Below are positions 2,911 through 24,223 of a stretch of DNA of 24,223 nucleotides, in pieces. The notes beneath the pieces were generated by a model. It saw nothing but the letters and a program-made list of their open reading frames with translations. It had not been told where the DNA came from and did no database searches. The position numbers were made by a program, and so were the translations under genes. Position 1 is the first letter of the stretch. Each line of letters begins with the position of its first letter. This DNA comes from Spirogloea muscicola (Eukaryota): contig WELB01000013.1 in the NCBI GenBank assembly GCA_009602725.1, positions 321,378 to 345,600 on the forward strand. Reading direction: 5' to 3'.

Positions 2911-3123
2911 TCGCCAGCTGGGGGCTTTCAGCAGCCGCCACGTCCTCCGCTTCAGAGCGATCAAGCCGTGTCGGCACACCGAAGCGCGCGCCTGGGCCTC
3001 CGACCCCCCCTCCCCGGCGCCGCCTCAGTCGTGTTACCAGCCCCTGCCCTGCCCCCTCTCCTCAGCAGCCCGCAGTCTCCCTGCTCTCTCCTGCACCACT
3101 GCTGCGAGCTGCAGCCCGAGCTC

Positions 3124-6100
3124 ATGGCCACCGCCGCCGCCGCCGCCGCCGNCGGCCGCCTGGCCGCCGCCGCCGCCGCCGCCGGCAGCACCGTCGCGGG
3201 CGTCAATGGCGAGGTGAAACGAGGGCTCTTACGCCGCCGCCATCGCCGAGCTCGCGTTTCGATCCCGGGTGTCCAGTCTCGCGCCCGCCGCTTCTCGGAG
3301 CAGCGCCACAGCGCCACAGCAGCGCCGCAGCAGCCATTGAATCCGGACTTCCGCCGTCTCTGGCGGCGCAGGTGGCGACGGCGGCGCAGATCCGGGAGGC
3401 CAAGGAGTTCCTCCAGCGCGACGCCGGCAACCTCTTCTCGGAGCAGGTGTGAGCCGGCAGCCTCCGTCGCTCGTGGGACGACGTCGCCGGCTTCAGGGCC
3501 AGGGTCTGGGCTCAGACGTTGATGGCTTAGAGCCACGGCTCTACGCCTAAACCCCCAATCCTTGAATTTTAAACCCTAAAACCTCAAACCCCAGAACCCT
3601 AAGTACACTCCAGTATCTGGGTGCTAAGGATCCGCACAATGCTACGCAAAGACTGGCAGTTCATGGCTGCCTTTGCGCAAGTGGCGCGACGGCTGCTGGA
3701 CTGGTCGCTGCTCGCCAGCGGCAGGGCTTGGAGACCTGTGCAGTGGCCGGTCGTGCTGAGAGCTCCTTGGCTGCCCACCTCGAGGGCTTGCTTGCGGCTG
3801 CTGGCAACTCAGGCCGCCGCAGCTGGCCGCGCTGCGCGGGGGCGCAGGGCATCGACCGCAGCAAGTACGAGGACGTGATGCACTTCATGGACCCCATCAC
3901 CAAGTACGACACGCTGTCCGGCTACCTCCTCAACATCGCCATGCTGCGCCTGCTCTTCCACCCCGTCTACGACCTTCACGGCGTCACGCAGGTTTTCTGC
4001 AGCTGCTGCAGCCTACCCCTTGTAGTGCGTAGCGCATTGCATGCACTACGAGACCTCCCTTGATGAAGCTGCAAAGCTCCCAGGTCTTGCCGCACTTTAT
4101 TAGCACCACAGAGGCCAGCTGCACAGTCTGCCATGGCCTCCATAGTATAGTGGCGAGCTCCCAATGCCTGCATCATGTGGTGGGCTGGGATGCAGACTGC
4201 TCAAGCAGCCAAGCTTTGTTTGTCAAGCGACTGAGTCAAGGCTTCCACTTGACTCTGAAGCCACCTGAAAGCTGCATCCTTGCCACCACTTTGCAAGATG
4301 GGCGCTGACGCGGCGTGTGCGCCCTCCGCAGACCGGGCCTAACGAGCTGACGACGCGGTGGACGATGACCATGGACTTTTGGCTCATTCCCTGGCGCCCG
4401 CAGCTTGTCTTCACGGGCACGTCTATCATGGCCCTCAATCCCGCTACCTCCAAATTCAATTCCCACATTGTGAGCCCCCGAGCTGCACCAGGAGGTTGCA
4501 TGCTGCAGCCGACTGCCAGCCCTTAGTCAAAGACCCTTTGCATCCAGGACACACCCAATTGTTGAATCTATATTCCTCCATGACCCCGTCGCTAAGTCAC
4601 ATAGACTGCTTGCTGACCTCTCGCTCGCCCCCCTGGTGCAACATGTTGGGTCATAACCTCAAGTCAGGCTTTTGTAGAACCTCACTGTCGACTATTAAAA
4701 CTGCATCTCCTATTTGTACCTGCTTATGCTGCTCCTGCCAGTGCCCAGCAACAAAAGTGCAGTGCATCTCCTCCCATGCCATGGCCGACAATAACACAAT
4801 CATGCGAAGGCCAGAGGAGTCTTCGGCTGTTGCCAGTTGTCTCGTTGGTCGAGTAGTACAACTGAGAGAGGTGTGTTGGTGACTTTTGGTCACAAGCCTA
4901 AGCAGGCATAGGAGTATATTCATCTGGAAACGTTTGCTCCTGGGCACACATGCAGGACACGTGGGATTCTATTCATGACCAGGAGTGGTTCTCGAAGCAG
5001 GGGTTCATGGACCTCCTTGCCCAGGTGCCAGAAGGGTTGCCTTTGTCTTACTTACTTGAACATTTATTTTGTTGCAAGAAGCCCAAGTGCTGCATCATGT
5101 TCCTCGCAGGTCAACGACCTGCATGATCAAAGCCAAGAATGGTAGCAGCCGCCTTGGACTCCCTGTTCTCCAGTCAATCACAAACATGTGCTCAATCTTG
5201 CCCACTCATCTTGCTTTGTCGCTTGTAGTTGCTCTCCAGGCCTCACAGCTGAGCTTCGGCAGGAAGCCGTCCACGCATCGCGTCCTCAAGCGGCTGGCTA
5301 CTTATGAGGTATAATACATCCTATGTGGTATACGTGCTGCTGCAGCTTTTTCAAGTCAAGAAGCCCGTCTAGGGAAAGTGGAGAAGCGCTTCTGAAAGTC
5401 CCATTCATTGTTGAGCAACCAGATGTAGTAGGTACAACGCTGTATTGTATTTGGCATGTACTCTGCCACAAAGTCTACATTGACATGTGTTTGAGCTCAT
5501 ACCTTCAACAGGTACACAAGTTTGATCCACTGGGAGCCTCGCACTTCCAGCCGCGAAGCAGGTTACATTCAAGCCTCAAATCTGGCGCAATATCGTTTTC
5601 AAACATTGTGCCTGTTGTGCAATCCGTTGGCAAATGTCAGCAATTGACTACCTTCGCTAGTCCAAGATGAGCAGCGCAGGTCAGAATTTTGTATCAGTGA
5701 GCTACCAATATTGAGTACTCGTTCTGCTGGGTCCTCTGCCTGCAGCTCTCAGCTGGTGGCAATGCTGAGTGTTGCGATTTGTCGTGCTTTCAGTGAGGTG
5801 GCAGATAAATGGTTGAGGTCAGGAGGCGAAGCGGCTGTGAGGAAAATTCGTGGGGGCTCCCTGGGCAATGCCAGGTTGGCGGGAGAGGAGCAGGACCTCC
5901 GGCAGACATTGGTCTCAGACGGCCTGGTGGCCCGAGAGGGCAGCTTCATTTCCGTGCCTGACCCCAGCTTCGTGCCGCCCTTCCTCAAAGTACGCTTTCA
6001 ACTACAGAGCATCGGCTTCCATGGCCTTAGCACTTTTCTTAATTGCTGTGCTACGACCTGCGCTGGCTACCCCAGATTGGGCTGCATCTGCCAGCTGCTC

Positions 6101-6306
6101 ATACTGGAGGCAAGGGCAGGGTTGGCTGGCGCCAATCTGTGATAGCAAGTTGCGTTGCTCCACATTTCTCTCTCTGCTTTAGCAAAGGGCGTTTGGGGTT
6201 TATATCTGAGAATGCAATGAGGAGCCCTGAAGGTTTCTGTCCACCACCTATGCAGACCACGGAGCTCCTCATTTGGTTGGACGATTTTGAGCTTTTGCAA
6301 AAGTGA
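3124..6306 (+). CDS. SOUL heme-binding family protein with N-terminal DUF2358/SnoaL-like domain (HBP5/At5g20140-like), probably plastid-targeted; spliced, ~9 exons
   Basis: Exons: 3124-3213, 3372-3446 (VATAAQIREAKEFLQRDAGNLFSEQ), 3848-3991 (GIDRSKYEDVMHFMDPITKYDTLSGYLLNIAMLRLLFHP..), 4332-4469 (TGPNELTTRWTMTMDFWLIPWRPQLVFTGTSIMALNP..), 4956-5024 (DTWDSIHDQEWFSKQG..), 5240-5308 (..HRVLKRLATYE), 5512-5561 (less sure), 5794-5989 (GGEAAVRK..EQDLRQTLVSDGL), 6256-6306 (TTELLIWLDDFELLQK*). All introns are GT-AG and in phase. Motifs match recalled plant HBP5 (QGID..Y...V.F.DPITK.D...GYL.NI; TTRWTM....LPW.P.LVFTG.SIM..NP; E..IWL.DF). Exon 1 is Ala-rich and transit-peptide-like, and contains an N at 3152. 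Confidence 0.88.
3132..3183 (+). repeat. (GCC)n trinucleotide tracts encoding poly-Ala, interrupted by an N
   Basis: Two GCC runs flank the ambiguous base at 3152 within exon 1 of the SOUL gene. Confidence 0.9.
3545..3602 (+). repeat. Degenerate interstitial telomere-like (CCCTAAA-type) tract with a perfect telo-box AAACCCTA at 3571-3578
   Basis: GCCTAAA..TTTTAAACCCTAAAACCTCAAACCCCAGAACCCTAA inside intron 2 of the SOUL gene; an A/C-rich island in otherwise very GC-rich DNA. Confidence 0.6.
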
Positions 6307-7849
6307 GGAAGAGAAGAGGAAGTCACAGATGGAGGCGAAGTAGTGCATACCTGCCCTGCATGGCTACTCCACTACTCCACCGAAGGCAAAGCGAAACCCC
6401 CGGCTTCAGAAGCTGTTGCCGAGCTCTTTACTTTAGAAAAGGGTTTGCAGGGTAATCTTGAGGCCTTCCTGCCCCCCGTGCCAGCTAGATTACTGATCAG
6501 CTTTGTCCCATTTGGCGGCTGAAAGGCTGCCCAATCCCTTGCACAGATATGGAAGTAAGGGACAAGCACTTGAATGTCTAGAATTCAGAACGTTTAGAAA
6601 TCAACTCTCTTGGAGCGCCACAGACAAACTTTGACGCTGCCATAGCCAGCCCAGCCAGACCCGTCAACAGTGGACCAGGAAAACAGTAAGTATACTAGTG
6701 TGAATTGGTGGTGTACCACTGTGGTAGTGTACCATACCATAAGCGGTACAATATATAAGCCTTATAAGCTCCCTGATCGCAAATGCGAGTTGCTCAAGCA
6801 ACCACAGTGGCACATGCCCCCCGGGAGATCGGGGACAGGCTGACAAATAATAGCAATATACAGCGCGACGCCTCAATGGGAGGCATTCGGGACCAAAATA
6901 AGGGGAGGAGAGAGTACTACTACCTGCACTCAGCACACAATGCAAGAATGCATTGGCAGGCGCGAAGATGCAATGCAGCGCACAAGTGCACGCTCGCATC
7001 TTGCTGGACGCCTGTCCATAGAGGAGCGCTGACACTGTAGAGCAGCCCTGAAACCTGGATGGGGCTCCCACTTTAGGGGAGCCAGAGAAGGGCGTCCCTG
7101 GGGACGTCTCAGATTCAGAGGCAGATATAGGAGAAGCTCATCGCAGGTGGACAGCCCCGAACTGTATCGCTACTGCGCCACTTGATCAGAGGCATCTGCA
7201 CCAAGCACCCTGCATAGCTACCCCGTCCGCCGAGCTCAGGCCCAACGCTCACATTGTGGGCCAAGAGGTCCACAGTGACAAGCCGAGAGCTTGCAGGCCA
7301 CAGCATGGCCTGGCGCCCCACTCACACCTCAGCCTCACACCTCTGATTCCACCAAGAGGAAAGCGCGGGGGGATAGGCTGCTGACAGCATCCTGAGCTGC
7401 TGTGTATGACCTTCCAAGCATTATCCATCCAGGCCTGCTCTGGCCTATGACGGCATCTCAGATTGCATGTTGAGGCCTCCAACAGGAATGTCGGCAACCG
7501 CAGAGGCCCAGTCGCTGCTACAGTGTCTGTGCAGCATTGTCAAGTGCTGGGCGCTTGTTGTACTGTCCTTGAGGCTCCTCTGATCAGGCTGGCTCTCGCC
7601 TCTGACCAGCCTTGGCGACAAAAGGAGCTTCCCTCCTCTGCAGATTCACAGCAACTTTTAAGGTTGTTACATTGCCAAAAGAATTGCGCCCACAGACATT
7701 GCTTGTCCAAGTGCTTGTTACCAACTATACAGTGCCAGCTTCTTGCAGGATCTGAATTATTAGTTGTGCTACTGACAAGCTCACAAGAGGTCCTCCACTC
7801 ATTGCCTGGTGATGGATTTGCCGAGGCAATACGGGCGTCTTGTGCAGAT

Positions 7850-10800
7850 TCAGTGACAAACCCTGCAACAGGAAGAAAATTTGAGAGCTAACCTGTGTAC
7901 TTGTCCACCAGCTTTGGTCGTTGTCTCGGCACCCTCCTCATCCACAGCAACCACGGTCTCCCTCATCGGCGCCTCAAGCACCACCTCTAAAGCGCCGTTT
8001 GTCGGAGTATGGCAGGTGGGCTCTTCACCAGCTGCATGTCCCCCGCTAACCGCAAGCTGCGGCAATGTGGAGCTCTCACTAGTGGAAAGATTATTGTGGC
8101 TTGGGAACCCTCGCAGACTTCCTCCAGAGCCCTTATGCCTTCCGTCCAGGGTATGAATTGATCTGTTCGTACTGCCACCAGTTCCAAACGTAGGGGTGAT
8201 GGGGAGTTGGAACCAAAAAGTGCTCCCTCCACCCGGTGTGCTGATCACGCCACACGAGCCTCCCTGCAATCAAGGAAAGTCCCTTTTGAGACAAAATGTC
8301 TTTTCCTCTTCATCTAGGCCATAAGTCAAAAGCTAGCATAATAAAGCAGGTCTTTCACGCAGAAGGTCTAAAATGACATTGTGCAATATCAACCTTGATA
8401 GAAGGTTCTACAAGGATACGCACCATCAACTCTACCAGCAGTTTGGCAATGGAGAGGCCCAAGCCTGTGCCTCCCCTCAGATTGCTCTTGTCAGGCGTCC
8501 CAAAGAAAGGCATGAAGACCTTTGCCTTGGCCTCCTCAGTCAACCCATCTCCTGTGTCAATGACGTCAAACCTCACACTGCTGGGCACCGCCACAGAAGC
8601 AACAAGTTCAACTGAGCCCGCTTTGGTGAACTTGAGAGCGTTGCCAATGAAGTTGACAAGAACCTGTACAAGATGCACAGCACACAAGCACACACGCAAC
8701 ACAAGATAAACTCACTGTCAGTCCATGCCTTGCACTTCCCAAGCTAAGCTGAGAGGCTGATGAGAGACACACAGCAGAAACACCAAATAAGCTAGGTGCA
8801 CATTTGATCATCAAGAAATGGGACTCCGTCTCATGTACTTCTTAAGATAACCTCAACTAGGTGAGGTTGTAGTTTCTGACTACACCTGCTGGAGGCGGTG
8901 CTTGTCACATGTAAAGTCAAGATCCTCAGTTCCTGAATTCAGGGTGTATGTCAGAGACACATGTTCCTTAGCTTTGACAGTCTCTATTGCTCTCTTCAAA
9001 ATTGGACCAAGTCGAGTGGTCGTCAAGACGACTCTTAGCTTTCCTCCCTCCAGCTTGCGGAGGTCAGACACATCCTCAACCACCTGACATGCCCAGACAT
9101 GGTTGAGAAGATGGCCTTGTAAAAATTACAATGTTGCTGTTGCTGTAATCTCGTGTACATCAGGTACCAGAATGCCAAACATGTCTGTGCATCCTTACAG
9201 GGTGGCTGTGCGATTACCTGCCAGATGCACGTATGGCAGACCCATAGCACCCATGACAAGACAAGCCGACCAGCAAATGCCAAACAGACAAAGAAGCAGA
9301 AAGGACCAAGGACTGCTCTAAACATGCCCACTTGTCAAAGTTCCTCAGTGAGTTGCACACCGTATTCATTACTCGACAACTCTCCTGAGCCTCCTTCAAT
9401 ATTTCAGAAACTGCTTTACAGGTTGCATAGACCTCCACCAATGGCGGCTGACTCCCATACTTTTCCTTGAGCAAAGAGCCAGCTTTCTTCAACCTCCTCA
9501 TCATGGAGCTGAGGGGCTCCTGCAACTCATGGCTTACGTAACTTATTACCAGCAGTGATACTTCTCTTGCCGTGGCTTCCGCTCTGCCACAAGAGTGGAA
9601 GTACAGTCAACGGCTTTGAATACAGAGTTGACACCTCAAGCATTCTACCAGAGCATGCACATTATTTGGCAGCCTGCATACTTGAGAGTGTATAGGCCAG
9701 AAAAACTGCCTCACTTGCATCCAAAGTTTCCTGACTGATCTCCAACAGATATCAGTGTGATGCATACTTAGTACTGCAGGCTCAGGTGATTGAGATGTTG
9801 CAAGCCTTTGACCAGCGACTTCTAAGCTTAGGACTACTTTCTCAGACAAGAGTAAGATGGACTCACGCTAAGCTGGCTCGAAGAAGATCAAAACGCTCTT
9901 CCACAAGGGTTAGCATAGATGCAAGTATTGGCCTGCCATGTAATGAGGAGTCAATGGTCAAGCTTCTGGACTAGGGAAACCGCTGAAAAGCTCCACCTGC
10001 AGGGTCTGAAAGTGCCAGGAAGCAGCTCACTTACCTGATGACAGCAAGGCCTTCTATGATTATTGTGACAATGATGATAGACGTAGTAACCCAGGTAATA
10101 ATTAGGAGGGTGTGCAGATGATCCTTTCCGCGACTTGCATACACTCCGACAAGTATATCCATCTCGTGCAGGAAGGTTACTTCAGAGAGAAGTATGTTGT
10201 TGACTTGTGCCGATATAGCAGCACTGCCACATTCCAATAACACAAGGCCAAGTATTGATCACGGCAGGAGCAAATGCAAGACAAGTTCTGGTGACAACAA
10301 GGAGCCTGACACGTCAAGACCGAAATCTAGGACTGAGGTTCCAGAAACCAGCTGAAGCAAAGGCTGGAAAGGTGGATCGAAGTGACCACCACATCAAAGC
10401 ACCTGGCAGGTGCTTAAAAGGATTGCTGAGATGTCCTTACAAAGGTACCTCACGGAACACACATAATACCTGGATATATTTTTCCGCTCAGCTGCAAGCA
10501 CGGTGAGGATGGACATTGCTGAAGTCACAAGCTCGTCAAACAGGGGCTGGAGATCTGCAGGAAACAAGGCCCTCAACGTTGAGCCCTGTGTCGGTAATGT
10601 GCAGGCAAATCACTGGAAGCGCCAGCATTGTGTCTTCATGAGCTCCATAGGACTTATGCAAGCTTCAGAATGCACTTCTATCCTCCCTACTTACCTTCTC
10701 ATAATACCTTCCACAACGGGCATCATTTGCACACAGGAATAAACCTCATGACTCGGTTCAGTGCAAGATATTAGAAAGAGTTCACATCAATAATGACTTG

Positions 10801-11530
10801 CATGAGATGTACAAACCTGCGAGGTAGTTACGTATCTCCTTATCAGGTGTGTGGGGTATGTGTACGTCATCTCTTTTCCGAATCAGGTCAGCCTGGCCCT
10901 TCTGAAATTTTGTCACGGCTGTTCGCAATTCGGCAATGTAAAAGGTAGCATTCTGTCCCCTCGATGCCAGCAATTGAAGAGCGAGCGCATCCTTCGAAAT
11001 CTGTAAGCCCCAGCATTGTTACTCTCACTTCTATGTATATCAATATCACAGCAATTCAAAGCCTTGAGACCAGTTGATAAATGCTGGGAATCTACAGGAC
11101 GCAATTATCAAAAGCAGAGCACAAGAGTTCCTTCTCACCTGCTGACACAACATCCGCTGGAGGCCAGCTTCATTGACGATTCGAGAGTCATCATACGAAC
11201 TATCTACCCAAACCTGGCCAATGATTTCCAAAGTGCACGATCAGTCAAGATTGGATTGCAAAGCTAGATACAGCTAGTACAGACTAACTTATGCAGTCTA
11301 GTATATTCAAGTGATAATACGCTACATGGAGGATTTTGGATCCCCCAAGAGGATATCTTGTATGCTGCAAGTCCTGGAGGTCAATATCACCTGAACAATA
11401 ATCTGGCCAGCTAGTGCCAGGAGCCCAACTATCAGCATGCAGGCAATGTAAGCGAAAGTCAGCTTCTTGACAAGTCTGGGGTTTTCAAGGCGTCCTGCTT
11501 TGTCGGATCCATCCTTCCAATCATATGCTC
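7850..11530 (-). CDS. Transmembrane sensor histidine kinase: TM1 - NarX/PilJ-like sensor - TM2 - HisKA - HATPase_c - low-complexity tail; spliced, >=10 exons; start codon and exact 3' end uncertain
   Basis: Minus-strand exons: 11530-11391 (KKLTFAYIACMLIVGLLALAGQIIVQ, TM1), 11213-11139 (VWVDSSYDDSRIVNEAGLQRMLCQQ), 11000-10817, 10554-10470, 10223-10035 (FLHEMDILVGVY..LLIITWVTTSIIIVTIIIEGLAVIR, TM2), 9932-9867, 9583-9361 (H-box SYVSHELQEPL), 9083-8886 (VEDVSDLRKLEGGKL..DKHRLQQ), 8663-8424 (N-box VLVNFIGNALKFT, G1 DVIDTGDGL, F-box VFMPFF, G2 GGTGLGLSI), 8263-7850 (GGSCGVISTPGGGSTFWFQLP + tail). Nine GT-AG introns with matching phases and no internal stops. Confidence 0.9.
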
Positions 11531-12618
11531 CTGCACAACATCAGCCGAGTGGTGCAGGGACCAGCTCTGAGCCTCACATTGTTGTGCATCTTTAGAGCCA
11601 AAAACAAGAGAGGCAAACAAATGCTGCAAATCGGATGCACTTTCTACATGTACATAACACATCTCAGTAAGTACACAGCCAGAAAATCTGGCAGACACTG
11701 CTCCACTAGTAATCTGTATTGTCAAAATTGCAGTTGGCTGAGATTCCAGCTATGTGTATCACAGAGAGCCGCCAGTGGACTCCCGAACATTCGCATCACA
11801 TGCCTGAGCAGTCCTGCTCGACTACTTGACATATTGGACCACCAATGACCTGCCTTGAACCCTGGCAATGACAATATGCTCATAAGACCAGTGCATGACC
11901 TCCTACAATCCAACTGCAGCGGCCACATCCTCATGCCTATACCTTGAGATTTGACAGACACTGATGGACACCCGGAAACATCAGCATACAGCGTATACTT
12001 GCTGAACTGAACCCTACTGGCAGTATGGCAGCCCAAAGTGACCGCACCCACCCGTCTGCCACCATCTACATGTCTAGGCTGGCATCACAAAAACATAGTT
12101 GCAAAAGGAACTCAGCCAGCGATGCCTCTTTCAGTCACACCTGACTACAGTGACCAGGATTGTTGAAACACATCCTAAGACTCTATATTGCTGTATAGAA
12201 CCTGTCGTCACAGATGACAGATACCAAGACATATGAACCCCTTGATACGCAAATATGGGGCCACGGCAAAGTACACACGCAATGAGAGAGAGCTCTTCAA
12301 GATGTTGGACACGCAGCTTCCAAACTGGTGGAGGATGGTGTCTGCTTCAGATGACATCGTCCACCCAGCTTCAGATGGGATGACAACCGTGACCAATCTT
12401 GTCGTACTGATGTCAGCCGGAGGAGAGGTCTTGAACCTCGGCTTCAACAACGTTCAAACAAGCTACTATAGCTAAGTCCCAACTTCTCCTGACCACCGCG
12501 CTCCGCAGACTGGTGTGCCAGCTGCACCATGAGCCGCGTAATCACGCGCTCACCTGAGGCGATTTGGCTGAAGGTCGGTACTCGGAGGACGTACTCCGAC
12601 GCTCCGCGACGGCCATAC

Positions 12619-12722
12619 CTCAGGCTACCATCCTCCGAGCTCGCAAACTCCTGGCTTGGCTTCCGCTGGAGGCCGCCTGCATGTGCGCTGTCGCCGTCCT
12701 TGTTGCCTCGTAGAGAGGGCAT
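12619..12722 (-). CDS. Candidate first coding exon of the histidine kinase gene (MPSLRGNKDGDSAHAGGLQRKPSQEFASSEDGSL..)
   Basis: ATG in a GCGCCATG context at 12722, downstream of a GC-rich leader, ending at a good donor AG|GTATGG. It is phase 2, whereas exon 11530 needs phase 1, so at least one intermediate exon in 11770-12520 is required. I could not fix that exon unambiguously. Confidence 0.4.
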
Positions 12723-12919
12723 GGCGCCCGCGTCAGGCGCGAGCCATCGGCAGCCGAGGAGCACGGCACGCGGGCTGCGCAGGGTGGGCGGCCAGCGGCA
12801 GCGCCGCCGCCCGGGGGGCTTGGAGGCAAGGGAGGCTGTGAGCAATGGCAGCGCCGCCGCTTCAAGCGGCGCCTCATCATCATCATTCGTGTGGGCCAGT
12901 CGTCACCCCCCTGCCTTTG

Positions 12920-14370
12920 TACATTCTTTTCTGGGCTGGCTTTTTCCAGCCCCTATCCTCAATGGGCGAGCCCTTCTCCCTGCGCACAGCCGCATCGCCG
13001 CTAGCTGGGTTGGCGGCTCCACCAAGTTGGCGGCGTGCTCTCCGACCGTCATCTTCAAGGCACCGGCTGCGAACCGTCCGTGGCCCCACAAACGTGCCGC
13101 TGGCCCCGCCAGATTAGCTCCGGGTCAAAGAAGTAAGCTCATCCAGGTGGCGAGGAGCTGTGAAAAGCTCCTCGCCACCTGGCCAGCCCGAAAAGATTGG
13201 AAAAGGTCCGAAGGTGCCAGTCAATGGAGATTCTCTTCATCTAAACAAAAAACAAAAAAAGGATCAAATCTCTTCCCAAAAGGGGGGCTGTAAAGAAGAA
13301 GTGAAATTTTCCGAAAGGGAGGGGTGCTGTGAAAATGGAAGTGGCTTTCCAAATAGGTGCAAGGGCGAAAACGGGATGAGCTCTTCCAAAGGAGAAGCCA
13401 GCCCGAAAGGAGTCTCAGTCCTTAGCACTCCGACTCCTTCAGACCTTGTCCATTCTTTTGGGCTGGCCTCTCCCAGCCACCAGTTAATCTGGCCGCGCTT
13501 GCTTCTTCAGCCCGAAAGGAGTCAACGAGGTCCAAAGGGGCCGAAAAGCGGTGGATGAGATTAGCAAGCAAGGACCATGTAGGATAATCTATTATAACCT
13601 CTAGTTAGTCGCCGCAAGTCAGAATTACTAGCCGCCGGGAAGAAAGTGGCTCTCCCTAAGGGGCGAGTGGAAACAGCTCTTTGGAGTACTTCATTTGGGC
13701 TGGCCTCTCACAGCCACCAGTTAATTTGGCAGCGCTTTTCTTTTGGAAAGAAAGAAAGTGGCTCTCCCAAGGGGGCAAGGGCTGTGAATAGCCAGCCAAA
13801 AAAGAGCTACAAGGTCCGCAGGGGCCAAGAAGCGCGTTTTCATAATATCCCGGTAAGATATTCACTAAGTAACCTCTAGTGAGAAGCCGCAAATCAGAAT
13901 GAAAAACACAAAAGAAAGACTAGCAGCTGGAAAGCAATCCCCCTGACGAAAGCCGGAGGCTGCAGCTAGAGCACGGCCAGCACGCAGATGCACGGCGTGG
14001 GCCATAGACCGCTGGAGTGATAAGGACAGGCGCATGCGAGACAGCTGCGCTAGCGAGCCAGCGGTGTTGAAGTTGGTCGCTCGCCTCGCCTCCGGGACAC
14101 AGCACGTCGCGCAGGCAGGGCCAACAGGCTGGAAAAGAGAAGAAGAGCTCTTCCAAAGGAGGAGCTCACTTCTTCAAAGGGAATGCTTTCTGGCGGCTAG
14201 CCTTTCTGACTTGTGGCTATTAACTAGAGGTCACTAGGTGAATATCCTACAAGATCCTTGCTTAGTCATGTCTTATAGCGCTTTTCGGCCCCTTTGGACC
14301 TTGTCAATTTATTTCGGGCTGGCTGTTCACAGCCCGCGCCCCCTTTGAGAGAGCCACTTTCTCTTCCAAA
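12920..14370. repeat. Second cluster of the same modular repeat family, in both orientations; possible non-autonomous transposon remnants
   Basis: Hairpin cores at 12933-12952, 13460-13478, 13697-13715, 13779-13797 and 14315-14336. A longer module (CAGCC..AAGGTCC..AGGGGCC..AAGCG..AACCTCTAGT..GCC(G/A)CAAGTCAGAA..CTAGC) occurs at ~13508-13640 and ~13790-13940, and inverted at ~14180-14325. Confidence 0.8.
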
Positions 14371-15526
14371 TATTGAGCTCCCGCCACATTCTTCCAGTGA
14401 AAGTGGCTTCTCCCAAAAAAGAAGGAATGGAGTTTGTATTGATTGGTGGAGGGCCTGAGTAGTCCAAGTGCAAAGGCAAGCACATGACAGATGTAAATCA
14501 CCTGCTGCTAAGCTGACCCGCTCAGTACCCATGAGTCAGCACATAGAGGTCGCTAAGCGATGCCCGAATACCGGACGGCTAATGACAGTAGTGGAGGTGT
14601 TTACGAAGGTCCGAAGAGAAAGCGCGACCATATTTACTGGTGGCAGTGAGAGCTCTTTTTCTTGCTGGGTCCGGATGCGCCGCCAGCCGCAGGGCCGCCG
14701 CCGCTACATGTGGCGGCAAGGTGGTCAGGCCGCAGCCCCCAATGCCGTACCGCGCGAGCGGCGGCCGTCCCGTGGACGGACCACGGGGGTCACCCTATGG
14801 AATCCCCCTCCCGGCAGCCGCAGAAGCCTCGCCGCCGCGGCGGCTCGAACCCTCTCGGCCGCCCGAAGGTATCTATCTGTCTTATCGACGGTACGATCAG
14901 CCACTCCGACTCCGCGCCGCTTGGAACCCACGCCCCAGCCGACGAGACGCAACGGCGTCTCGCTCGACGCTGCCGTTTTCGTCCAAGGCACGTCGCCGTG
15001 GCCTCCCGCCTTCAGCTCCCGCGGGCCCGCCATTCCCCGTCGCTTCGAATCTCCACCGCCGTCGACATCGGCCCGGCTCCGCCGTCAGCCGCACTATACC
15101 GCGGGCGGGCGACCTGGCCTTTGCCGCACCCGGCGCAGGACCTCGCGCCTGCGTTGATCACCTTTGGCGCTACCACTGGAGTGGCCTTGTTTGTTAGCTT
15201 TGCAGCGGATAACCAGTTTCCAGGAGGACATGAGCAGCCTGCCAAATTGCTGCGTTGCGCCGTAGGGCCGAACACTCCTAGGTCGGGCCCCCAGCGTCGA
15301 GACTTCATTGTTACCGCTGGCAGCGATGCAGTCTTCACGCTCCTCAGGTGGCCAAGTTGCAGCAAGCACCGGCAGTCGGAGGCGGCGATGATGGCTGCCG
15401 GTCACTACGACCGGCCTCTGCGGCTTTCCAACACTAAGCGACAGCATTAGACTCCACTTGCGAGTGGAAAACCGACGCGTCTTGCTCATCGCTGCGGCGG
15501 TATGATTGTAGCCTGAAAGCGTGAGC

Positions 15527-18500
15527 ATGGGCACACAGAGCTCCCTTAGGAATTTCTTTGCAGCCAGAAGGGCGAAGGATGAAGTCAGCAGCGGCGAGGG
15601 TACAGGAGCCGGCCAGGATGTCGGCGCCAGTCAGTCGCAGCTGTTGCAGCTTGAGAGCCCCTGTCTGACGACTGGCATACGCGTCTCTCCGGTGAGGAAG
15701 AGAAGGACATGCCTGGTGCCAAGGGTGAAAATTGTTCTTGACGAGGACAAGCTTGTCCTCAACGAGGAGAATGCTGAGGAGGTGCAAGAGAATGTCGATG
15801 AAGGCTTCAAAAGGCGTGTAGGAAACTCAGAGGATGACAGGCATGCAGTGGCCGCAGACGAGAAAAGGCAACGCCTTCTCTCAGCTTTGGGAGAAGACGA
15901 CAATAGCAAGAAGAGCGCCTGGACTGAAGCAAAGCAAAGGTTTGACTGGCTTCAGCCAGACAAGATTAGAGACGGCAAGGGTCGCCGGGCTAGCGATGAA
16001 GAATATGACTGGAGGACTGTACGAGTACCAAGCAGCCTCCTGGCAAGCATGAGTGCCTCACAGCGGCAGTACTGGGATACCAAGTGCCAGTACATGGATG
16101 TGGTGCTATTCTTCAAAGTGGTACACCCCCTCAACTCCGTAGGCAGACAGTACTTTCTTGTGCAGCGCTTTTCTTAAGGAGCAGGTTGTCCGCTTGACAC
16201 TCTCACACATCCTGCCATTGATCTCAGCTTTTACCCCAGCTGCACGGCACACTGCTGTGCTTGGAGCAATTGTTCAGAGCAATAACTAAAAATGCTCTAT
16301 TGTACAGGGGAAATTTTATGAGCTATATGAGATCGATGCAGAAATTGGACATAAGGAGATGGGCTGGAAGCTTACCGTGACTGGAGTTGGTAGATGCCGC
16401 CAGGTATTCTTAATACTTGCACGCCATTGTGCAGGGAGATACTTGACTGCGACTGTCTGCGCTCCAAGTGCTTGATTAACATTTATGCTGAGACCTGCAT
16501 CATCTTGAACACCTAAGTTTGTTCAGACAGCTGCAGCTTGAGATCACTGCCAGACTGAGATTCAGCAAGGTTGCAGGTCGGCGTTCCTGAGAGTGGCATT
16601 GATGAAGCTATTAGGAAATTGGTTGGTCTAGGGTACGTTCTCTGATTTAACGCTCTTACCCACTTCACACATCTGGTCTTTATACCAATGCAGGTACTTG
16701 AAGTACAAAGTCTTGGAATTACAATGCATTGATGGCACAGTGCATGCAGACATGCGTCCTGTTTCTTGTGATCTGCCATGAATGTGCACTTATGCGATGT
16801 GAGGTGACTGTAGGTACAAGGTGGGGCGAATGGAGCAAGTCGAGACTGCTGCTGAAGCCAAGGAGAGGCGTGGCAATGCAGCAGTCAGTATATCCGATGC
16901 CTCAAGTTCTTTGATGCAGAGCTTTCCAATACAATCTTGTCTCGCAGCTTCATATCATGTTGCTCGTCTGCTCGATACTCAAGATCCTGAGCCAGCTCAG
17001 GGTAGGTTGGGCTTGTGAATCTGTCAAGTGCTCTGGTCCCAAGGCGTGTTATTTGCTATTGGTACTGATATACATATATCTTTCTGCTAATTACCAAAGA
17101 GAGAGATAGGTACGTACATACTTTCTCATAAGTATATCTGTAAGCTGGTGTGTGCAGGTAGTAAAGCGAGCTCTTGTCAAGGTCTTCACACCAGCTACAG
17201 TGACTGACGATTTTGTGCGCCCTGAAGCTTATCACCTGCTGGCCGTTAAGGAGGTACTGCAGTGCAGACACCAAGCAGATACCTTTCTTTGATGGGTATA
17301 TTAGAAACATGAATCTGTGGGCTTTGGTGTTGATGAAGCTTCGGCTCAGGTTTGAATGTACGCTAAAGATACTCCGACAATTGTGACGCTTGCTATGCTG
17401 AAGATCACCTTTGCATGGGCTTTGCAGAGTCCAAGTCCAACTGCAGGAGGAAGTCACTCTGTAGAGTTGGGTGAAGTCATGTACGGGTTTGCCTTCGTTG
17501 ATGCTGCAGCTGGAAATTTCTTCCTGGGGACCATCAAGGATGATGAGTCACGAGGAGCATTAGGAGCACTTCTGCAGCAGATTAATCCCCAAGAGGTCTT
17601 GTTTGAGAAGGGATGTAAGTGCCATCAATCTCCATCTTACAACTTTGCCCTCTCCTACGAGGAAGTGCTACTGCAGTAGTATAGGACTTTTGCTCTTGCT
17701 GCACGGGTCTCTCTCTACAACATAGTAGCCTCCTGTTTGACTTCGTACGCAATATTCTTACAGGTCTCTCTCCAGAGACAAAGCGAGCTCTAGCGAGGGC
17801 GTCAGGCCCAGGTACCACCACCTTCATGCAATGTTGGGACCATGTACCTCTATCTATTGTGTCGTCAAGCATATGCTTGGTGTTTTCAAGAGGAGTTGAT
17901 GCAGCTTTGCCTGAGGCAGGGCCATTGATCCATATTGCCTGCCTCATGGGCTGCAATAATGACTACAAGGCAACTATTTGCTCTTGCAGGACTTCTACCT
18001 CTCCAGCTGACGCCTCTTCTGCCAACTTCTGAATTCATAGACGCTCAAGAGACGCTCCGACGAATACACAAGAACTCGTACTTTCATGGCTCCACTAATA
18101 GCTTTGACTTAGACGACCTCCGAGAGCAAATTCTTCAGGGAAACATAAGCTGTGAGGTGGTAGCCAGCGCGCTTGGTGCCGTTATCTCGCATCTCCAAAG
18201 AATGAAGGTGTTGTGCATTCCAAGAGAAAGCAGTCCTCTCTTTCCCTGAAGGATCCTATGTCATTGCAAGCTACAGCATTTTTTTGATTGTTTGCCTATT
18301 TGCGCTTCGCTTTATCATCAGCTGATTTGGAATAGGAAGTAATGATATACAATGACATGGCCAAAAGTCAGGGTGAAAGTTTCAGATATCCAACTCACCT
18401 GCTTCGCTACTTTGTCATGTGGCAGTTTGACATTGAGCTCCTGCGACATGGAGATCTCCGTCGCTACGAAGTCTATGCTGGATCTCTGCGCCTGGATGGC

Positions 18501-21500
18501 CAGACCTTAGTCAACCTGGAGCTCCTGGGAAATTCGGCAGATCATGGCAAAGCAGGTGCCTACTGCTCTGTATTCTTGTGGTAGCAATGCCATCTCGTGC
18601 AACGTCCATGACTTGCAAGTACGTTTGCCTTATGCGGGCAAGGTTACCGCTTCTTGAGAGAACCTAGGCCTACTTAAATGGCCAACATTGCCCTCCCTGA
18701 AAAGCGCAAGCTTTTGAAGATGTCATCGTGTTCCTGCACTGTATGCCAGTAGACTCCAACACCAATACCTATTGGCTGCTACTGCAGGCACATTGCTTGG
18801 CCATCTTGATACCTGCGTCACACCTGCTGGCAAACGCCTGATTCGACGATGGATCTGCCACCCCTTGCGATCCATCACTGCAATAGAGGCTAGACTAGAT
18901 GCGGTGGACGTGCTCCTGGCGGATTTCCAGTGGGCCACAGAGACGCGGTCAAAGTTGAGACGACTACCCGATCTCGAGAGATCACTAGGTAGAATTCGAA
19001 GGATAGCAGCCGGGTTGACTGTTGAGGGTGCATCTATGGGGGTGGCTTCCAAACTTCACGAGCAGCGGGTGAGTCACCTAAAGACGCACACTTTGAATTA
19101 GGCGGATGAAAACGAGATATGGTCAGGCGGCTGAGTCTTGACGACAAGTTGTACATCTACTCACAGCATACGTGCTGACTGGCGGGCTGTGCATGTCTTT
19201 GACTTAAAAATTAAGATGTTTGCTGCACAGATGAGGACGTTCGGCAGTACAGTCCGAGCAATATCAGACACCTTGTTTGTCCTAATGACGGTGCGTAAGG
19301 AGGTAGAACGTGGACGAGCAGACAAAAGATCGGCACTTTTGGAGTCCTTAACAAGCATCCCGCTGAAGGAAAGAGCAGCTTGCGGAGTGCTTGATGAGAT
19401 TGAGGGCATTCTTGAGCTCAAGCCGTCAAGCAAGACTACCACTCAGTGGTCTCTACGTGTTGAGGTGCAGATGCTCAACCCTTCTGTGCACACCAGTGAA
19501 GTAGATTATTCTGACTGCTTGCAACTTGTTATGCCAACTCAATTAACAGGCTCTTAGTGGGTCCACCTCAGAGTGCCATGTCTTGATAATTTCTCACTTT
19601 GCAGGAAGGTGGACGTGTGGAAGCAGAGGAGGAGTGGGAGTGGGAGGCCCGAGCACTCAGCGAGCTCTTAGTCCTATTCAACGGGCACATGCGAGCCTGG
19701 ACAGAGATTGCACAAGCAGCCACTCAAATTGATGTCTTGATAGCCTTTGGTCAAGCAGCCCGAGCCTCAGCTGGAGCATGCTGCAGGCCCACTTTTGTAG
19801 CCTGTCAGGCTTCGGAGGGAGGGTTGTCAGCCTCCGGCTGCCTGCTCAACCTTCAAGGCTTGTGGCATCCATATGCTGTTGGCGGCGGGGGTGGAGCTGT
19901 TGTTCCAAACGATGTGGTGTTGGGGCCCACCTTGGATGGCACCACAGCCCCAAGGGCCATGCTGCTGACTGGGCCAAACATGGGCGGCAAGTCGACCTTG
20001 CTAAGAGCAACCTGCGTGGCAGTGATCATGGCCCAGGTGCTTGCATTCCCACAGCCAGCCTTACTCTGAACAACTCATGTATGTGCAATCAGTGTGTGCA
20101 CATCATACACACATGATGGCTCTTTTGCCGCAAGGTGCATGAGGTTGCTTATCACTAGTTCAGTATCCGACTATGAAGCGTTGCATGAAAGTTGTTTGTC
20201 TTTGCACAGTTGGGGTGCTATGTACCAGCAGCGAGGTGCACGATGTCGGTCGTGGATACCATCTTCACGCGCTTGGGAGCCAGCGACCGGATCATGTCTG
20301 GAGAAAGTGAGTAAGGAGGAAGAGGAGTGCCTCCAAGAGTTAGACTAGTGATATCTGATGGCAGGTTCTTGGGCACAAGTCTGGCAATATTTACAATACA
20401 TTTCTGAGGCGTCACAAGAAGTTCTACCACATGGAGCATCATTGGAAATCGTTTCTTGCAAATTTCAACTCTGGTGGCATGAAGAGGTGTACTTCAGTGT
20501 CTCTGCAGGTACCTTCATGGTGGAGTGTAACGAGGCTGCCTCAGTGTTGCGACATGCAACCCCCCAGTCCTTGGTCATCCTTGATGAGCTAGGACGGGGA
20601 ACTTCCACCTTTGACGGCTATGCAATAGCATATGCGGTATGCTTTTGCATAGAGAAGAAACCTCAGGGTGTTATGGCGCATAGTTATGTATCTGCCAGGG
20701 TGACAAGATCAGACGATTGCTTACATGGACATCTTGCTGGCGGCTTTGTTGGCTCTTATGTCTTACAATCTTGCTTGTGGTGGACGAATAGCAATTAAGA
20801 GCTTGTGCTTCTTGACTAACATCACCAAGCATTGTCTAACAAGTGTGAGACCAAGATGATGGCTAACCATTACTGAGTGCATTCAGTCAGACATAAGCAT
20901 CATATAGCTGACATTGGGCTGAGCTTCTTCTGTGAAGGTGTTGAAGCACCTCACTGAGACCCTGGACTGCCGGCTCCTGTTTGCCACACACTACCACCCG
21001 CTCAACGACGAGTTTGCCAAGTCGACTCGAGTGAAACTTCTCCACATGGCATCCGCCTTGAGGGGCCCAACAGGCGACCAAGAAGTCGTCTTGGAAGAGC
21101 ACCAGGCCCCTGCAAAAGCCACAATGGAGATGGACGGTGGAATACTGCAGCCAGTTGAGGGGCTCTCAAGGGATCAGCTTGTCTTCTTGTATAAGTTGAG
21201 AGAGGGTCCTTGCCCAAAGAGCTACGGCCTCCACGTCGCGTTGTTGGCCGGCATCCCAGAAAGTGTGGTGCACGCAGCATCCCGCTCAGCCTCCAGGATG
21301 TGCACAACAATGGGTCCTACACATGGTAATGCGCACTGGCAAGAGGCAGGGGTCCTTGGAGAAGGGATTGCAAGCACTGGTGCGTTTGGCAATAGTGGGG
21401 TGTATACCCACTGGTTCTCGCAGCTGTTGGTCGCCCAAGGAGCGGCTCATGAATGGCACAGCAAGGTGCTGTCTGTTTGGAAGGAGTTGCAGGTGACAGA

Positions 21501-21516
21501 CCTCACGAGTCCATGA
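15527..21516 (+). CDS. MSH7: DNA mismatch repair protein MSH7 (MutS-gamma subunit, plant-specific MSH6 paralogue), 15 exons, ~1081 aa
   Basis: Exons 15527-16120, 16308-16403, 16577-16632, 16814-16883, 17158-17253, 17428-17614, 17764-17811, 17990-18207, 18426-18555, 18788-19068, 19231-19464, 19605-20036, 20210-20306, 20509-20636, 20938-21516, all GT-AG and in phase. N-terminal PIP box QSSLRNFF. Mismatch motif [15 protein letters not shown]7-type MSASQRQYW and [18 protein letters not shown]. Walker [61 protein letters not shown]. The lever/clamp region is short, as expected for MSH7 rather than MSH6. Confidence 0.95.
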
Positions 21517-21647
21517 CACCTCTGTACAGGTCACAATGTCCTCAGACTACTGAGAAATTGGAGCACTGTCCTCTTCAAGTATGCTAAAATGAAGATATTC
21601 CATGAGAAACACATCCCCTTGCCTCTCCCAAGAAGCTGAGCTCAATG

Positions 21648-21699: not shown

Positions 21700-21955
21700 C
21701 CTTTCATACCTCTGCATGCTGTAGTTGCCTAATCAAGTGATTGGCAGCTTGATGACGTACATTCCATTAATTGATTATGGTGAGGTCAAGCAGGCACGCA
21801 TTCCAGGTCAACCGATGGGCATCTTGGCAAGTGCTGGGTGCATTGTTCACTATACCTATAAGCTTCAGCTTCTAATGCAGCCTGCTGAAGAACCCATGTA
21901 GACCATAAAAAAGCGGAGCAAGGCCAGTAACAACACAAGAAGTCCTCAAATAGGG

Positions 21956-24223
21956 TCAACTTCTAATGGCAGCATACCCGCCAGCTTCTAACTCCCTAGC
22001 TAATGATTTGTCGCCAGTCTTCACTATCCTCCCGCCCTCCTGGAGGTACACACTGACACTTACAATCACTGCCAAATCACCTGTTCTGAGGACTCGCAGA
22101 GTGCCATCGCTACTTCTGACATGGCATTCTTTGGACACATAACACGAGGTCATGAGACTTTCACGACATTACCAATCAGGGCAATCCGGAATGTGAAAGA
22201 CTTCTCGTAGTATTCAGATACTAGGGAGCCAGAGAAAGCAGCAGGTGGACATGCTCTGAGAAGGAATGGCCAATGCTCACCATGATGTGCACAAAATTGG
22301 GCGTGATGTAATCAAGCAACCGTTGATAGTGTGTGATCATCAACACAGCCTTCTCGGGCTTCTTGAGCCCATTCACAGCCCCGGCAACGTCCCTGAGGGC
22401 GTCAATGTCAAGACCAGAGTCAATCTCGTCGAGGATGGCCAGGTCGGCATCAAGGACCTGCACCAACGTATAGCTAACATTATTAGCGCCACTAGTACTC
22501 ACACCCATCAAGGGCAGTCACGGTTGACTCAATCTTTCGACCCGTGGTGCTGAATGTCAAGCACGTGAGACACCCCTATACCAGTGCTACGTACACGGAC
22601 ATGCTCAAAAGACCTTGGACCTTGAAACTTCTGCAGCTGTTCATCACTTACTCTGTCAGTCACTCAGTACCTAGAATAAGCAATTGCCTCCTGATAAGCA
22701 TGACCAATGTAGCCGGGAGCTGCTAGCTTCCTGAGAGCTGGAGGCCTGATTTGAGGTGATATGAAGCACAAGTCTACATCCAGCTCAGGAAACCATACCT
22801 AGGGGTAAAGCTACGAAGTGAGCTTGGTATTAAACAAGTAGTCAACAATCACCTTCTCCATCAAAGTGATAAAGGCCCTGCTTGCGATGTGGGACGATTT
22901 GGCAGTGACTTGCGAAATGGCAGCACTGCGTGGCTAGAATGGCAACTCACGGCCAATTGAAGTATCTCATTGCGCTTCTTCTCGCCCCCGCTGAAGCCCT
23001 CATTGACGTTCCGCGACAGGAAGCTGATGTCCATCTTCAGCTCGTCCAGCTTGGGCGTCAGGAATGCATAAAACTGGCCGGCAATGGAACAGCAAGCCAA
23101 TCAGCAAGCAGGCAGTGGGAGCCGGCTCAGCAGAGTGACTCCATAAGCTGTTGCTTGCCATGATTGACATGCTTGTGGCAAACGGCAACACTGAAGTAGA
23201 TACTGCATAGGGAACCGGACTGGGAGGGGTTCTGCCAGAGGCTTTGGAGGAGGGCTTCAAGATGGAATGGGGCCTGAGAGTCTCTTAGCACTCACAGAGT
23301 AAGAACCGTGACCAGATGCATCAAGAGCCCACAAGGCGGCGGCAACGGCAGCAGAGGCAGACAGCTGCGCACCTCCAGGGGGTCGAGCTCAGGCTGGCCG
23401 AGGGCGGCGCGGCGGGCGTTGGCGGCGAGGCGCAAGAAGTCGGTGTTGGACACGCCGGGGACCTCGACGGGCGACTGGAAGGAGAGGAAGAGGCCGGCGT
23501 GCGAGCGCTCCTCAGGCTCCAGCTCGAAGAGGTCGCGGCCCTTGTACAGCGCAGTGCCGCCTGTGACCTCGTAGTCCGGGTGGCCCACCAGCACCTGCGC
23601 CAAGGTGGCCATGGCCATGGCCAGGCCGTCCTACCACTGTGAGTATCGCCCGAAGCCCGTTCTGCCAGCAAGAGCAGCTCCGGCAGCACATTGCAGCTGC
23701 TCTACTGGGACCGGCCGAGGCCCGCAAGCGGCGAGTGCACCGGCGCGCCACCAGAGAGCGGCAGGCCGAGCGGCGCGCACCTTGGACAGGGTGCTCTTGC
23801 CGGACCCGTTCTTCCCCATGATCGCGTGAACCTGCCCACACAAGCGGCGGCACGTTAGATGCGTCCGGACAACGACGTCCAGAGCTGCTAACGCAACATC
23901 ACGTTGGCCTCAAACAAAGCCCCGTACAGTCGGTTGGGCGGGCTGCCGAACCCAGAAGGCTACGAGACGGCGTGCAGGCGCGCGGGGCCAGCACAGCCAA
24001 GCGCAGCGGCTGGCCGCCTGGAGGCTGACATTGCCACTATCCACACCATCTGGATGTAAACCCAGCAGCCCCCACCTCGCCCTCGCGGATGAGGAGGTCG
24101 ACGCCGGCCAGGATCTCGCGGCCCCCGTCGGCAATGGCCGCCGTCAGGCCCCGCACCTCCAGCAGCGGCGTCGCCGCCGCCGCCGCCGCCGTCTCCCCAG
24201 CCGGCGCTGCCGCCGCCGCGGCC
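21956..24223 (-). CDS. sufC: Plastid Fe-S cluster assembly ATPase SufC (ABCI6/NAP7); 5' end (start and transit peptide) lies beyond the window
   Basis: Minus exons: >24223-24076 ([31 protein letters not shown]), 23831-23781 ([17 protein letters not shown], Walker A), 23594-23373 ([28 protein letters not shown]), 23073-22951 ([21 protein letters not shown]), 22457-22281 ([27 protein letters not shown]), 22039-21956 ([27 protein letters not shown]). All introns GT-AG, phase 0. Confidence 0.97.

Follow-up and report, generated by a model that had tools for sequence, protein, structure and literature searches.

A histidine kinase of the streptophyte alga Spirogloea muscicola with a NarX/PilJ-type sensor domain, a candidate nitrate/nitrite receptor

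In flowering plants, nitrate perception is attributed to NRT1.1 and NLP7. Bacterial nitrate/nitrite-sensing histidine kinases (NSHKs) such as NarX and NarQ are defined by a DHp domain of the HisKA_3 type and, outside the Bacteroidetes class, by HAMP and GAF-like domains (PMC8199190). Their ligand is contacted by a Gly-x-x-Arg motif, in which the Arg holds nitrate and the Gly pair stacks it at the interface between the first sensor helices of two subunits (H1-H1'; PMC8199190, PMC7247690). A pattern of 12 positions, the N-box, has been proposed as the mark of nitrate-binding PilJ domains (PMC6381276); PilJ of P. aeruginosa itself does not bind nitrate (PMC6381276, PMC10896506). NarX-like sensing regions were reported by Kabbara et al. 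(PMC6324907, 2019) in KniteHK29 (GAQ84772.1), KniteHK44 (GAQ88426.1), SmoelHK12, SmoelHK15, PpateHK38 and PpolyHK39, the hosts being Klebsormidium, Selaginella, the moss Physcomitrella and Physarum, and the authors proposed, from sequence, that nitrate/nitrite sensing was acquired horizontally during terrestrialisation. A 2026 phylogeny of zygnematophyte kinases (PMC13730384) describes CHASE, MASE1, GAF and PAS inputs, and its main text has zero occurrences of PilJ, NarX or nitrate. Here we analysed a stretch of 24,223 nt (contig WELB01000013.1, positions 321,378 to 345,600; hereafter the window) from Spirogloea muscicola, an alga closely related to land plants. On the minus strand, between window positions 12722 and 7445, it holds a kinase gene of 12 exons that encodes SM000013S26429 (P0001), a protein of 710 amino acids (aa). 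Our preferred reading, to which we give about an even chance, is that P0001 is a kinase with two membrane helices whose NarX/McpN-type sensor, as a dimer, is likely to bind nitrate or nitrite on the non-cytosolic side, and whose kinase domain is predicted to be active.

An earlier note, made from the letters of the DNA, had placed such a receptor at 10035..11530. This interval indeed belongs to the kinase gene, but covers only exons 2-6 of the 12 (Table 1). The exons listed there (11530-11391, 11213-11139, 11000-10817, 10554-10470 and 10223-10035) have AG/GT borders and, translated in frame, give the first transmembrane helix (TM1), the N-box helix, a helical domain and the second transmembrane helix (TM2), just as had been described. 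The exon lengths of the gene total 2,133 nt, the annotated locus length of P0001 (5,278 nt) equals the window span 12722-7445, and the 61-aa translation of exon 4, used as a query, returned one database protein, P0001, with 100% identity. All 11 introns were found as joints in intron-less contigs of run X1 (CT..AC on the plus strand, i.e. GT-AG on the strand of the gene), among them both introns bordering exon 11213-11139, which places this exon in the kinase mRNA as the earlier note had it. That run X1 is RNA is a guess; we take it as cDNA because the contig joints lack introns. None of the four depth bins within the 1-kb first intron is covered in this run. Each joint was seen separately, any of three near-identical gene copies being its possible source, and no contig covers the whole gene; the contig pieces 6675-7637 and 7962-8264 show zero differences from the copy studied here. 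The other two copies in Spirogloea have 94-95% identity, making three full-length copies in all. The kinase gene is real, spliced and transcribed. An artefact (contaminating bacterial DNA, a chimeric gene model or a pseudogene) might be suspected from the fact that the nearest relatives of the sensor outside its own clade are bacterial. We consider this very improbable: it is contradicted by eleven GT-AG introns backed by intron-less contigs, by the spliced DUF2358 and MutS-family genes on either side, by the three full-length copies and by relatives of the same layout in other algae, which form one clade.

P0001 consists of a cytosolic tail of ~80 aa, TM1 (~80-103), the sensor (104-252), TM2 (~257-282), a short helix, DHp, HATPase_c (437-546) and a C-terminal tail without a Pfam match. 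As a whole, the protein matches PilJ (PF13675) over aa 108-213 with 34.2 bits (E 2.9e-8), above the curated cut-off of 26.6 bits, and exon 3 alone has PilJ as its sole Pfam match (E 0.065). The Pfam check proposed in the earlier note thus gave the expected family, and its central claim, that a streptophyte histidine kinase carries a PilJ/NarX-type sensor, is borne out by profile, fold and splice evidence. As to its phrase 'complete kinase core', HATPase_c is strong (E 2.1e-25), and His321 with its acidic residue as well as the N, G1, F and G2 boxes are present, while HisKA reaches 20.6 bits against a curated cut-off of 26.9. From these motifs the kinase core is predicted to be active. The low HisKA score weighs against this, as does the H-box, which has Glu in place of the Thr common in relatives. 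Thr/Asn in HisKA has been linked to phosphatase activity (PMC8199190); as these residues are absent from P0001, the protein may be a kinase only, devoid of phosphatase activity. HAMP, GAF-like, receiver and HisKA_3 domains were not found in the Pfam scan, and TM2 is separated from His321 by ~40 aa. Among NCBIfam models, hybrid-type kinase cores (TorS, BarA) take the top ranks, every score lying under its cut-off, and the NarX and NarQ models are not in the best 25 of 48 matches. Searching PDB sequences with full P0001 or a full-length profile returned kinase domains as the only matches.

A sensor-only profile matched PilJ (E 3.7e-10), McpN (E 5e-9) and NarQ (E 0.02), and the best match of P0001 in the ESM Atlas is a PilJ cluster (0.96). 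The AlphaFold2 model of residues 72-295, built on an alignment of 140 sequences, has a predicted local distance difference test score (pLDDT) of 92 and shows an antiparallel bundle of four helices (H1-H4) between the two membrane helices, with TM1-H1 and H4-TM2 each forming one unbroken helix. Foldseek searches with this model place NarQ entries at ranks 1, 3, 5, 8 and 10, none of which reach E<=0.001. In a wide structural search PilJ was found with Z 16.0 (root-mean-square deviation 2.5 over 131 aligned residues) and NarQ with Z 12.7 (4.3 over 194 residues); unrelated helical bundles also attain Z 12-15, as such bundles score high generically. The sensor fold is thus predicted to resemble those of NarQ, McpN and PilJ. 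When two copies were modelled together, an H1-H1' interface including Gly120, Arg123, Met124, Gln127 and Lys131 was obtained, with a score of 0.71 compared to 0.01 for the best of three controls; contacts agreed between runs to at least 79%, and the pLDDT was at least 79. In our calibration, 21 of 30 microbial homodimers passed the mark and none of 23 monomers did; of 29 eukaryotic homodimers 17 passed, yet only one of the seven without an older solved relative; the pass may therefore reflect memory of the solved NarQ/McpN dimers. An H1-H1' dimer with Gly120 and Arg123 at its interface is, accordingly, a prediction of the model.

By analogy with NarQ, NarX and McpN, one nitrate or nitrite would lie on the twofold axis of this dimer, gripped by Arg123 and Arg123' and sandwiched between the two Gly120. 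Binding of the anion would rotate H1 and shift the membrane helices as in NarQ (PMC7247690), and the signal would travel along a continuous TM2-DHp helix as in the HAMP-less sensors of Cytophagales (PMC8199190). His321 would then autophosphorylate. Since P0001 has no receiver domain of its own, the phosphate would go in trans to the receiver of a separate protein, either a response regulator or a hybrid kinase from which an HPt relay is fed. Several observations are in line with such a site. The N-box of P0001 agrees with 11 of the 12 pattern positions, the full pattern being missed by Cys126 in place of Ser/Thr, and the Gly-x-x-Arg of H1 is represented by Gly120 and Arg123, both in the predicted interface. 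All 14 clade sequences share the Gly, Gln, Arg, Gln and Lys of H1 without variation, and Asn117 and Met124, which are altered in the non-binding PilJ, are retained. Of 155 collected proteins, 107 have the strict N-box. Between the three Spirogloea copies 16 sensor positions vary, none of them in aa 104-138 (p ~0.01 for a segment picked post hoc). Asp240 in H4 (Asp in 73% of relatives; one Spirogloea copy has Asn) may be the counterpart of NarQ Asp133, judging from its position only. Nitrate/nitrite sensing is, by this analogy, the most likely function of the sensor.

A number of findings weigh against this assignment. The earlier note had stressed the intact Arg; Arg123 and Gly120 are indeed present, but they are weaker evidence than was implied, as the non-binding PilJ of P. 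aeruginosa has Gly-x-x-Arg in the alignment too and matches the family profile as well as McpN does. Three N-box residues are rare among the 142 presumed-bacterial relatives: at the position of Glu118, 135 have I/V/L/M; at that of Leu121, 137 have R/K and 2 have L; and at that of Cys126, 136 have S and one has C. P0001 keeps 31 of 53 conserved sensor columns, many of the 22 changes being clade-wide, and lacks the Trp, His and Gly found in H2 of most relatives. The N-box of the probable Mesotaenium orthologue P0010 agrees at 10 of 12 positions and that of the Klebsormidium protein at 9 of 12. The PilJ/NarX fold might thus have been kept while P0001 senses another ligand or none, with Gly-x-x-Arg serving dimer packing. 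The three substitutions, which remove a basic residue and add an acidic one near the anion site, would fit this possibility, as would the altered N-box of the orthologue, the Gly-x-x-Arg of the non-binding PilJ and the similar Z reached by four-helix sensors for many other ligands. However, the published patterns (PMC6381276, PMC8199190) leave N-box positions 3 and 6 open, McpN having Ala at position 6, the predicted interface does not include Glu118 (its absence there being uncertain), and the named nitrate-contact residues are all retained, bar the variable position 6. We regard loss or change of the ligand as a real but minority possibility.

To place P0001 in a family, we searched 1.84 billion representatives with the stretch TM1-sensor-TM2 and obtained 1,416 matches at E<=0.001. 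Among the best 150 of these, the six that follow the query score 108-131 bits and the next one 98; a word-index search with the sensor region, an insensitive method here, returned 2 proteins out of 5,904 candidates. The six are two proteins with the prefix jgi/Mesen1, which we take to be Mesotaenium, a cluster with Klebsormidium nitens GAQ86381.1, one EukProt transcript and two Logan proteins, and two Closterium proteins were added by a profile search. No named land-plant or chlorophyte member was found among the 20 of 149 non-self matches looked up by name. In three trees (40, 96 and 34 rows) the algal sensors form one clade against the bacteria with a support of 100 in the SH-like approximate likelihood ratio test (SH-aLRT), and the algal kinase cores form one clade at 99 (56 rows), in which P0010 is the orthologue of the Spirogloea gene (support 97). 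All trees are quick ones without bootstrap; the algal proteins sit on a long branch of their own in sensor and kinase trees alike, and P0005, P0007, P0009, P0038 and P0087 are counted as streptophyte solely by their position in the clade. No receiver was found in P0001 or the seven relatives scanned. Taken together, Spirogloea, Mesotaenium, Closterium and Klebsormidium (GAQ86381.1) appear to share a receiver-less clade. In our preferred reading the algal sensor derives from bacteria by a single acquisition that predates the split of Klebsormidium and Zygnematophyceae. An N-glycosylation sequon in the H1-H2 loop is found in 12 of 12 clade sequences (which are not independent of each other) compared to 14 of 139 bacterial ones; this fits a sensor that faces the secretory lumen or the cell exterior.

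In the clade, counting the Spirogloea copies as one and the Closterium pair as one, there are eight full-length lineages. His together with the N, G1 and G2 boxes is kept in two of them only, Spirogloea and P0010; His is replaced by Asn in three (P0154, P0007, P0009), and the G boxes are altered in the remaining ones (P0005, P0006, P0171, P0172). With damaged motifs in six of eight lineages, phosphorelay may not be the main output of the family. Within the clade, the strict N-box is confined to P0005, P0006, P0087 and Closterium, the degenerate-kinase branch. P0001 might bind nitrate and yet signal mainly by means other than phosphorelay: it could serve as a scaffold, or pair in mixed dimers with kinase-dead paralogues whose N-boxes are better, by analogy with the degenerate ethylene receptors of plants. 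The loss of His or ATP-binding motifs in those six lineages with H1 residues kept, the lack of a receiver match in any scanned member and the presence in Mesotaenium of one member in each subclade would all suit such an arrangement. Yet catalysis seems to be under selection in P0001 and its orthologue P0010, as both retain His and the N, G1, F and G2 boxes, and no paralogue of the second subclade was seen in Spirogloea among the protein-database matches. We rate a non-phosphorelay output of P0001 as unlikely, and retain the reading of P0001 as a predicted active kinase. Most clade members (P0154, P0007, P0009, P0005, P0006, P0171, P0172) look like pseudokinases, yet keep the ligand-site residues. 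Several of them also share a conserved cytosolic motif directly before TM1, which could be a partner-binding site.

For the bacterial relatives, we inspected the best 80 of 541 loci, chosen for an intact motif from the bacterial alignment and without a random control, and annotated 41 representative neighbours. In favour of nitrate as the ligand, in 24 of the 80 loci genes for nitrite reductase, nitrate reductase-like proteins or nitrate transporters lie within up to 6 kb (Bacteroidota 17/23, Planctomycetota 4/7, Chloroflexota 2/6). Their concentration in Bacteroidota and the counts for Cyanobacteria (0/19) and Pseudomonadota (0/14) weigh against it. In marine filamentous cyanobacteria (L005-L039), N-box sensor kinases occur with adjacent nitrate-assimilation genes in none of 19 loci. 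A Ktedonobacterales locus (L017, 3097-8109) combines genes for two N-box sensors with those for a response regulator and an MFS transporter; the first of the sensors is a kinase, while the C-terminal part of the second resembles a Cys/His zinc-finger and not a kinase. We also considered Ktedonobacteria as donor and rejected it: with LG+G4 a pair groups next to the algal sensors as their sister (SH-aLRT 94), which a mixture model (quick tree) does not recover, and the kinase of this pair scores 33-41 bits compared to up to 106 for hybrid-type kinases.

Extending the preferred reading to the whole clade, it is conceivable, though we would not bet on it, that a family of glycosylated nitrate receptors of bacterial origin, facing the cell exterior, has been retained in streptophyte algae, from Klebsormidium up to the lineage that is sister to land plants. 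It would comprise one branch with an intact kinase (the Spirogloea gene) and several pseudokinase branches, and would perceive nitrate directly, separate from the NRT1.1 and NLP7 routes of flowering plants and distinct from the hybrid NarX-like kinases of 2019. If true, this would add an older, third route of nitrate perception, through a membrane receptor kinase whose nitrate pocket is bacterial.

Table 1. Exons and sensor features of the kinase gene, in window positions
Feature	Position	Strand	Basis
Exon 1: coding sequence start, aa 1-57, cytosolic N-terminal tail	12554..12722	-	borders, joint 11529/12553, match to P0001 N-terminus
Exon 2: aa 57-103, TM1 ~aa 80-103	11391..11530	-	hydropathy peak up to 2.41; joints
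Exon 3: aa 104-128, start of sensor helix H1	11139..11213	-	sole Pfam match PilJ E 0.065; joints both sides
N-box/P-box, aa 116-127; Gly120 11165-11163, Arg123 11156-11154	11142..11177	-	11/12 pattern positions
Exon 4: aa 129-190, H1 end, H1-H2 loop, H2	10817..11000	-	100% P0001 match; model helices
N-glycosylation sequon at Asn146, H1-H2 loop (exon 4)	10949-10947	-	sequon count
Exon 5: aa 190-218, helix H3	10470..10554	-	borders, joints, model
Exon 6: aa 218-281, helix H4 into TM2 (~aa 257-282)	10035..10223	-	borders, joints, model
Exon 7: aa 281-303, helical linker from TM2 to DHp, without HAMP	9867..9932	-	borders, joints, Pfam
Exon 8: aa 303-377, DHp/HisKA-like, His321 at 9531-9529	9361..9583	-	HisKA E 4.8e-4, below cut-off; joints
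Exon 9: aa 378-443, DHp end and start of catalytic domain	8886..9083	-	borders, joints
Exon 10: aa 444-523, HATPase_c with N, G1, F, G2 boxes	8424..8663	-	HATPase_c E 2.3e-17 (reading frame alone); joints
Exon 11: HATPase_c end and tail without Pfam match	7893..8263	-	joints 8262/8423 and 7637/7893
Exon 12: C-terminus and stop	7445..7637	-	joint 7637/7893; reading frame 7445-7645 = P0001 C-terminus

Elsewhere in the window, a spliced DUF2358 gene (3120-6500, plus strand; exon 4332-4469, E 2.3e-7) converges on the 3' end of the kinase gene. It is transcribed: contigs show GT-AG joints, with several alternative ones close to its 3' end, and cover 6384-7637. On the other side lie a multi-exon MutS-family gene (15530-21520, plus strand; MutS_I and MutS_V matches), by eye presumably MSH7-like, and a spliced ABC-ATPase gene (21900-24223, minus strand) cut at the window end, which by eye we take to be SufC/ABCI6-like. 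Dispersed near-repeated blocks are located upstream of the DUF2358 gene (2480-2900) and of the kinase gene (12900-14430), and many unrelated contigs match ~12770-13000, suggesting a repeat family.

Compared with known systems, P0001 shares with E. coli NarX/NarQ (NarQ, 5IJI) the order TM1-four-helix sensor-TM2, the Asn-x-x-Gly-x-x-Arg-Met in H1 and the H1-H1' dimer (predicted in P0001). It lacks the HAMP, GAF-like and HisKA_3 domains by which the NSHK family is defined, its HisKA-type core being closest to the hybrid kinases TorS/BarA; its N-terminal cytosolic tail, glycosylation sequon and introns are further differences. With the ligand-binding domain of the chemoreceptor McpN (6GCV) it has in common the PF13675 match above cut-off, the N-box and the profile match given above, whereas the output of McpN is a chemoreceptor tip and not a kinase, and P0001 has its Cys at N-box position 11. 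The HAMP-less N-box sensor kinases of Bacteroidota, Planctomycetota, Ktedonobacteria and Cyanobacteria are colinear with P0001 over TM1-sensor-TM2 (~24-35% identity), and their TM2 likewise runs straight into the output; they often adjoin nitrite/nitrate reductase genes, and many have receiver, PAS or HPt domains, while the algal proteins are a separate clade. The kinases of Kabbara et al. (PMC6324907) are, like P0001, streptophyte kinases with an N-terminal NarX-like region, so that the term 'undescribed' in the earlier note fails at the level of the class, for which the idea of nitrate/nitrite sensing had already been published. In Klebsormidium and Selaginella their proteins have the layout H-A-R-R, with two receivers, whereas P0001 and the seven relatives scanned have none. 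PpateHK38 and PpolyHK39 are receiver-less like the P0001 clade and were compared by description only; on that basis PpateHK38 may be a member of it. GAQ86381.1 has 0 occurrences in their Table S1, consistent with its single detectable core domain out of the three that their survey required. That pseudokinase members escape such a two-of-three-domain filter suggests a family bigger than catalogued. In the literature covered, which left most subscription journals outside its scope, we found no functional study of plant NarX-like kinases and no account of the receiver-less clade. The class is thus already described by sequence, and the receiver-less clade appears not to have been catalogued; what appears to be new, to judge from the proteins compared here, is this clade with its one intact and several degenerate kinase branches.

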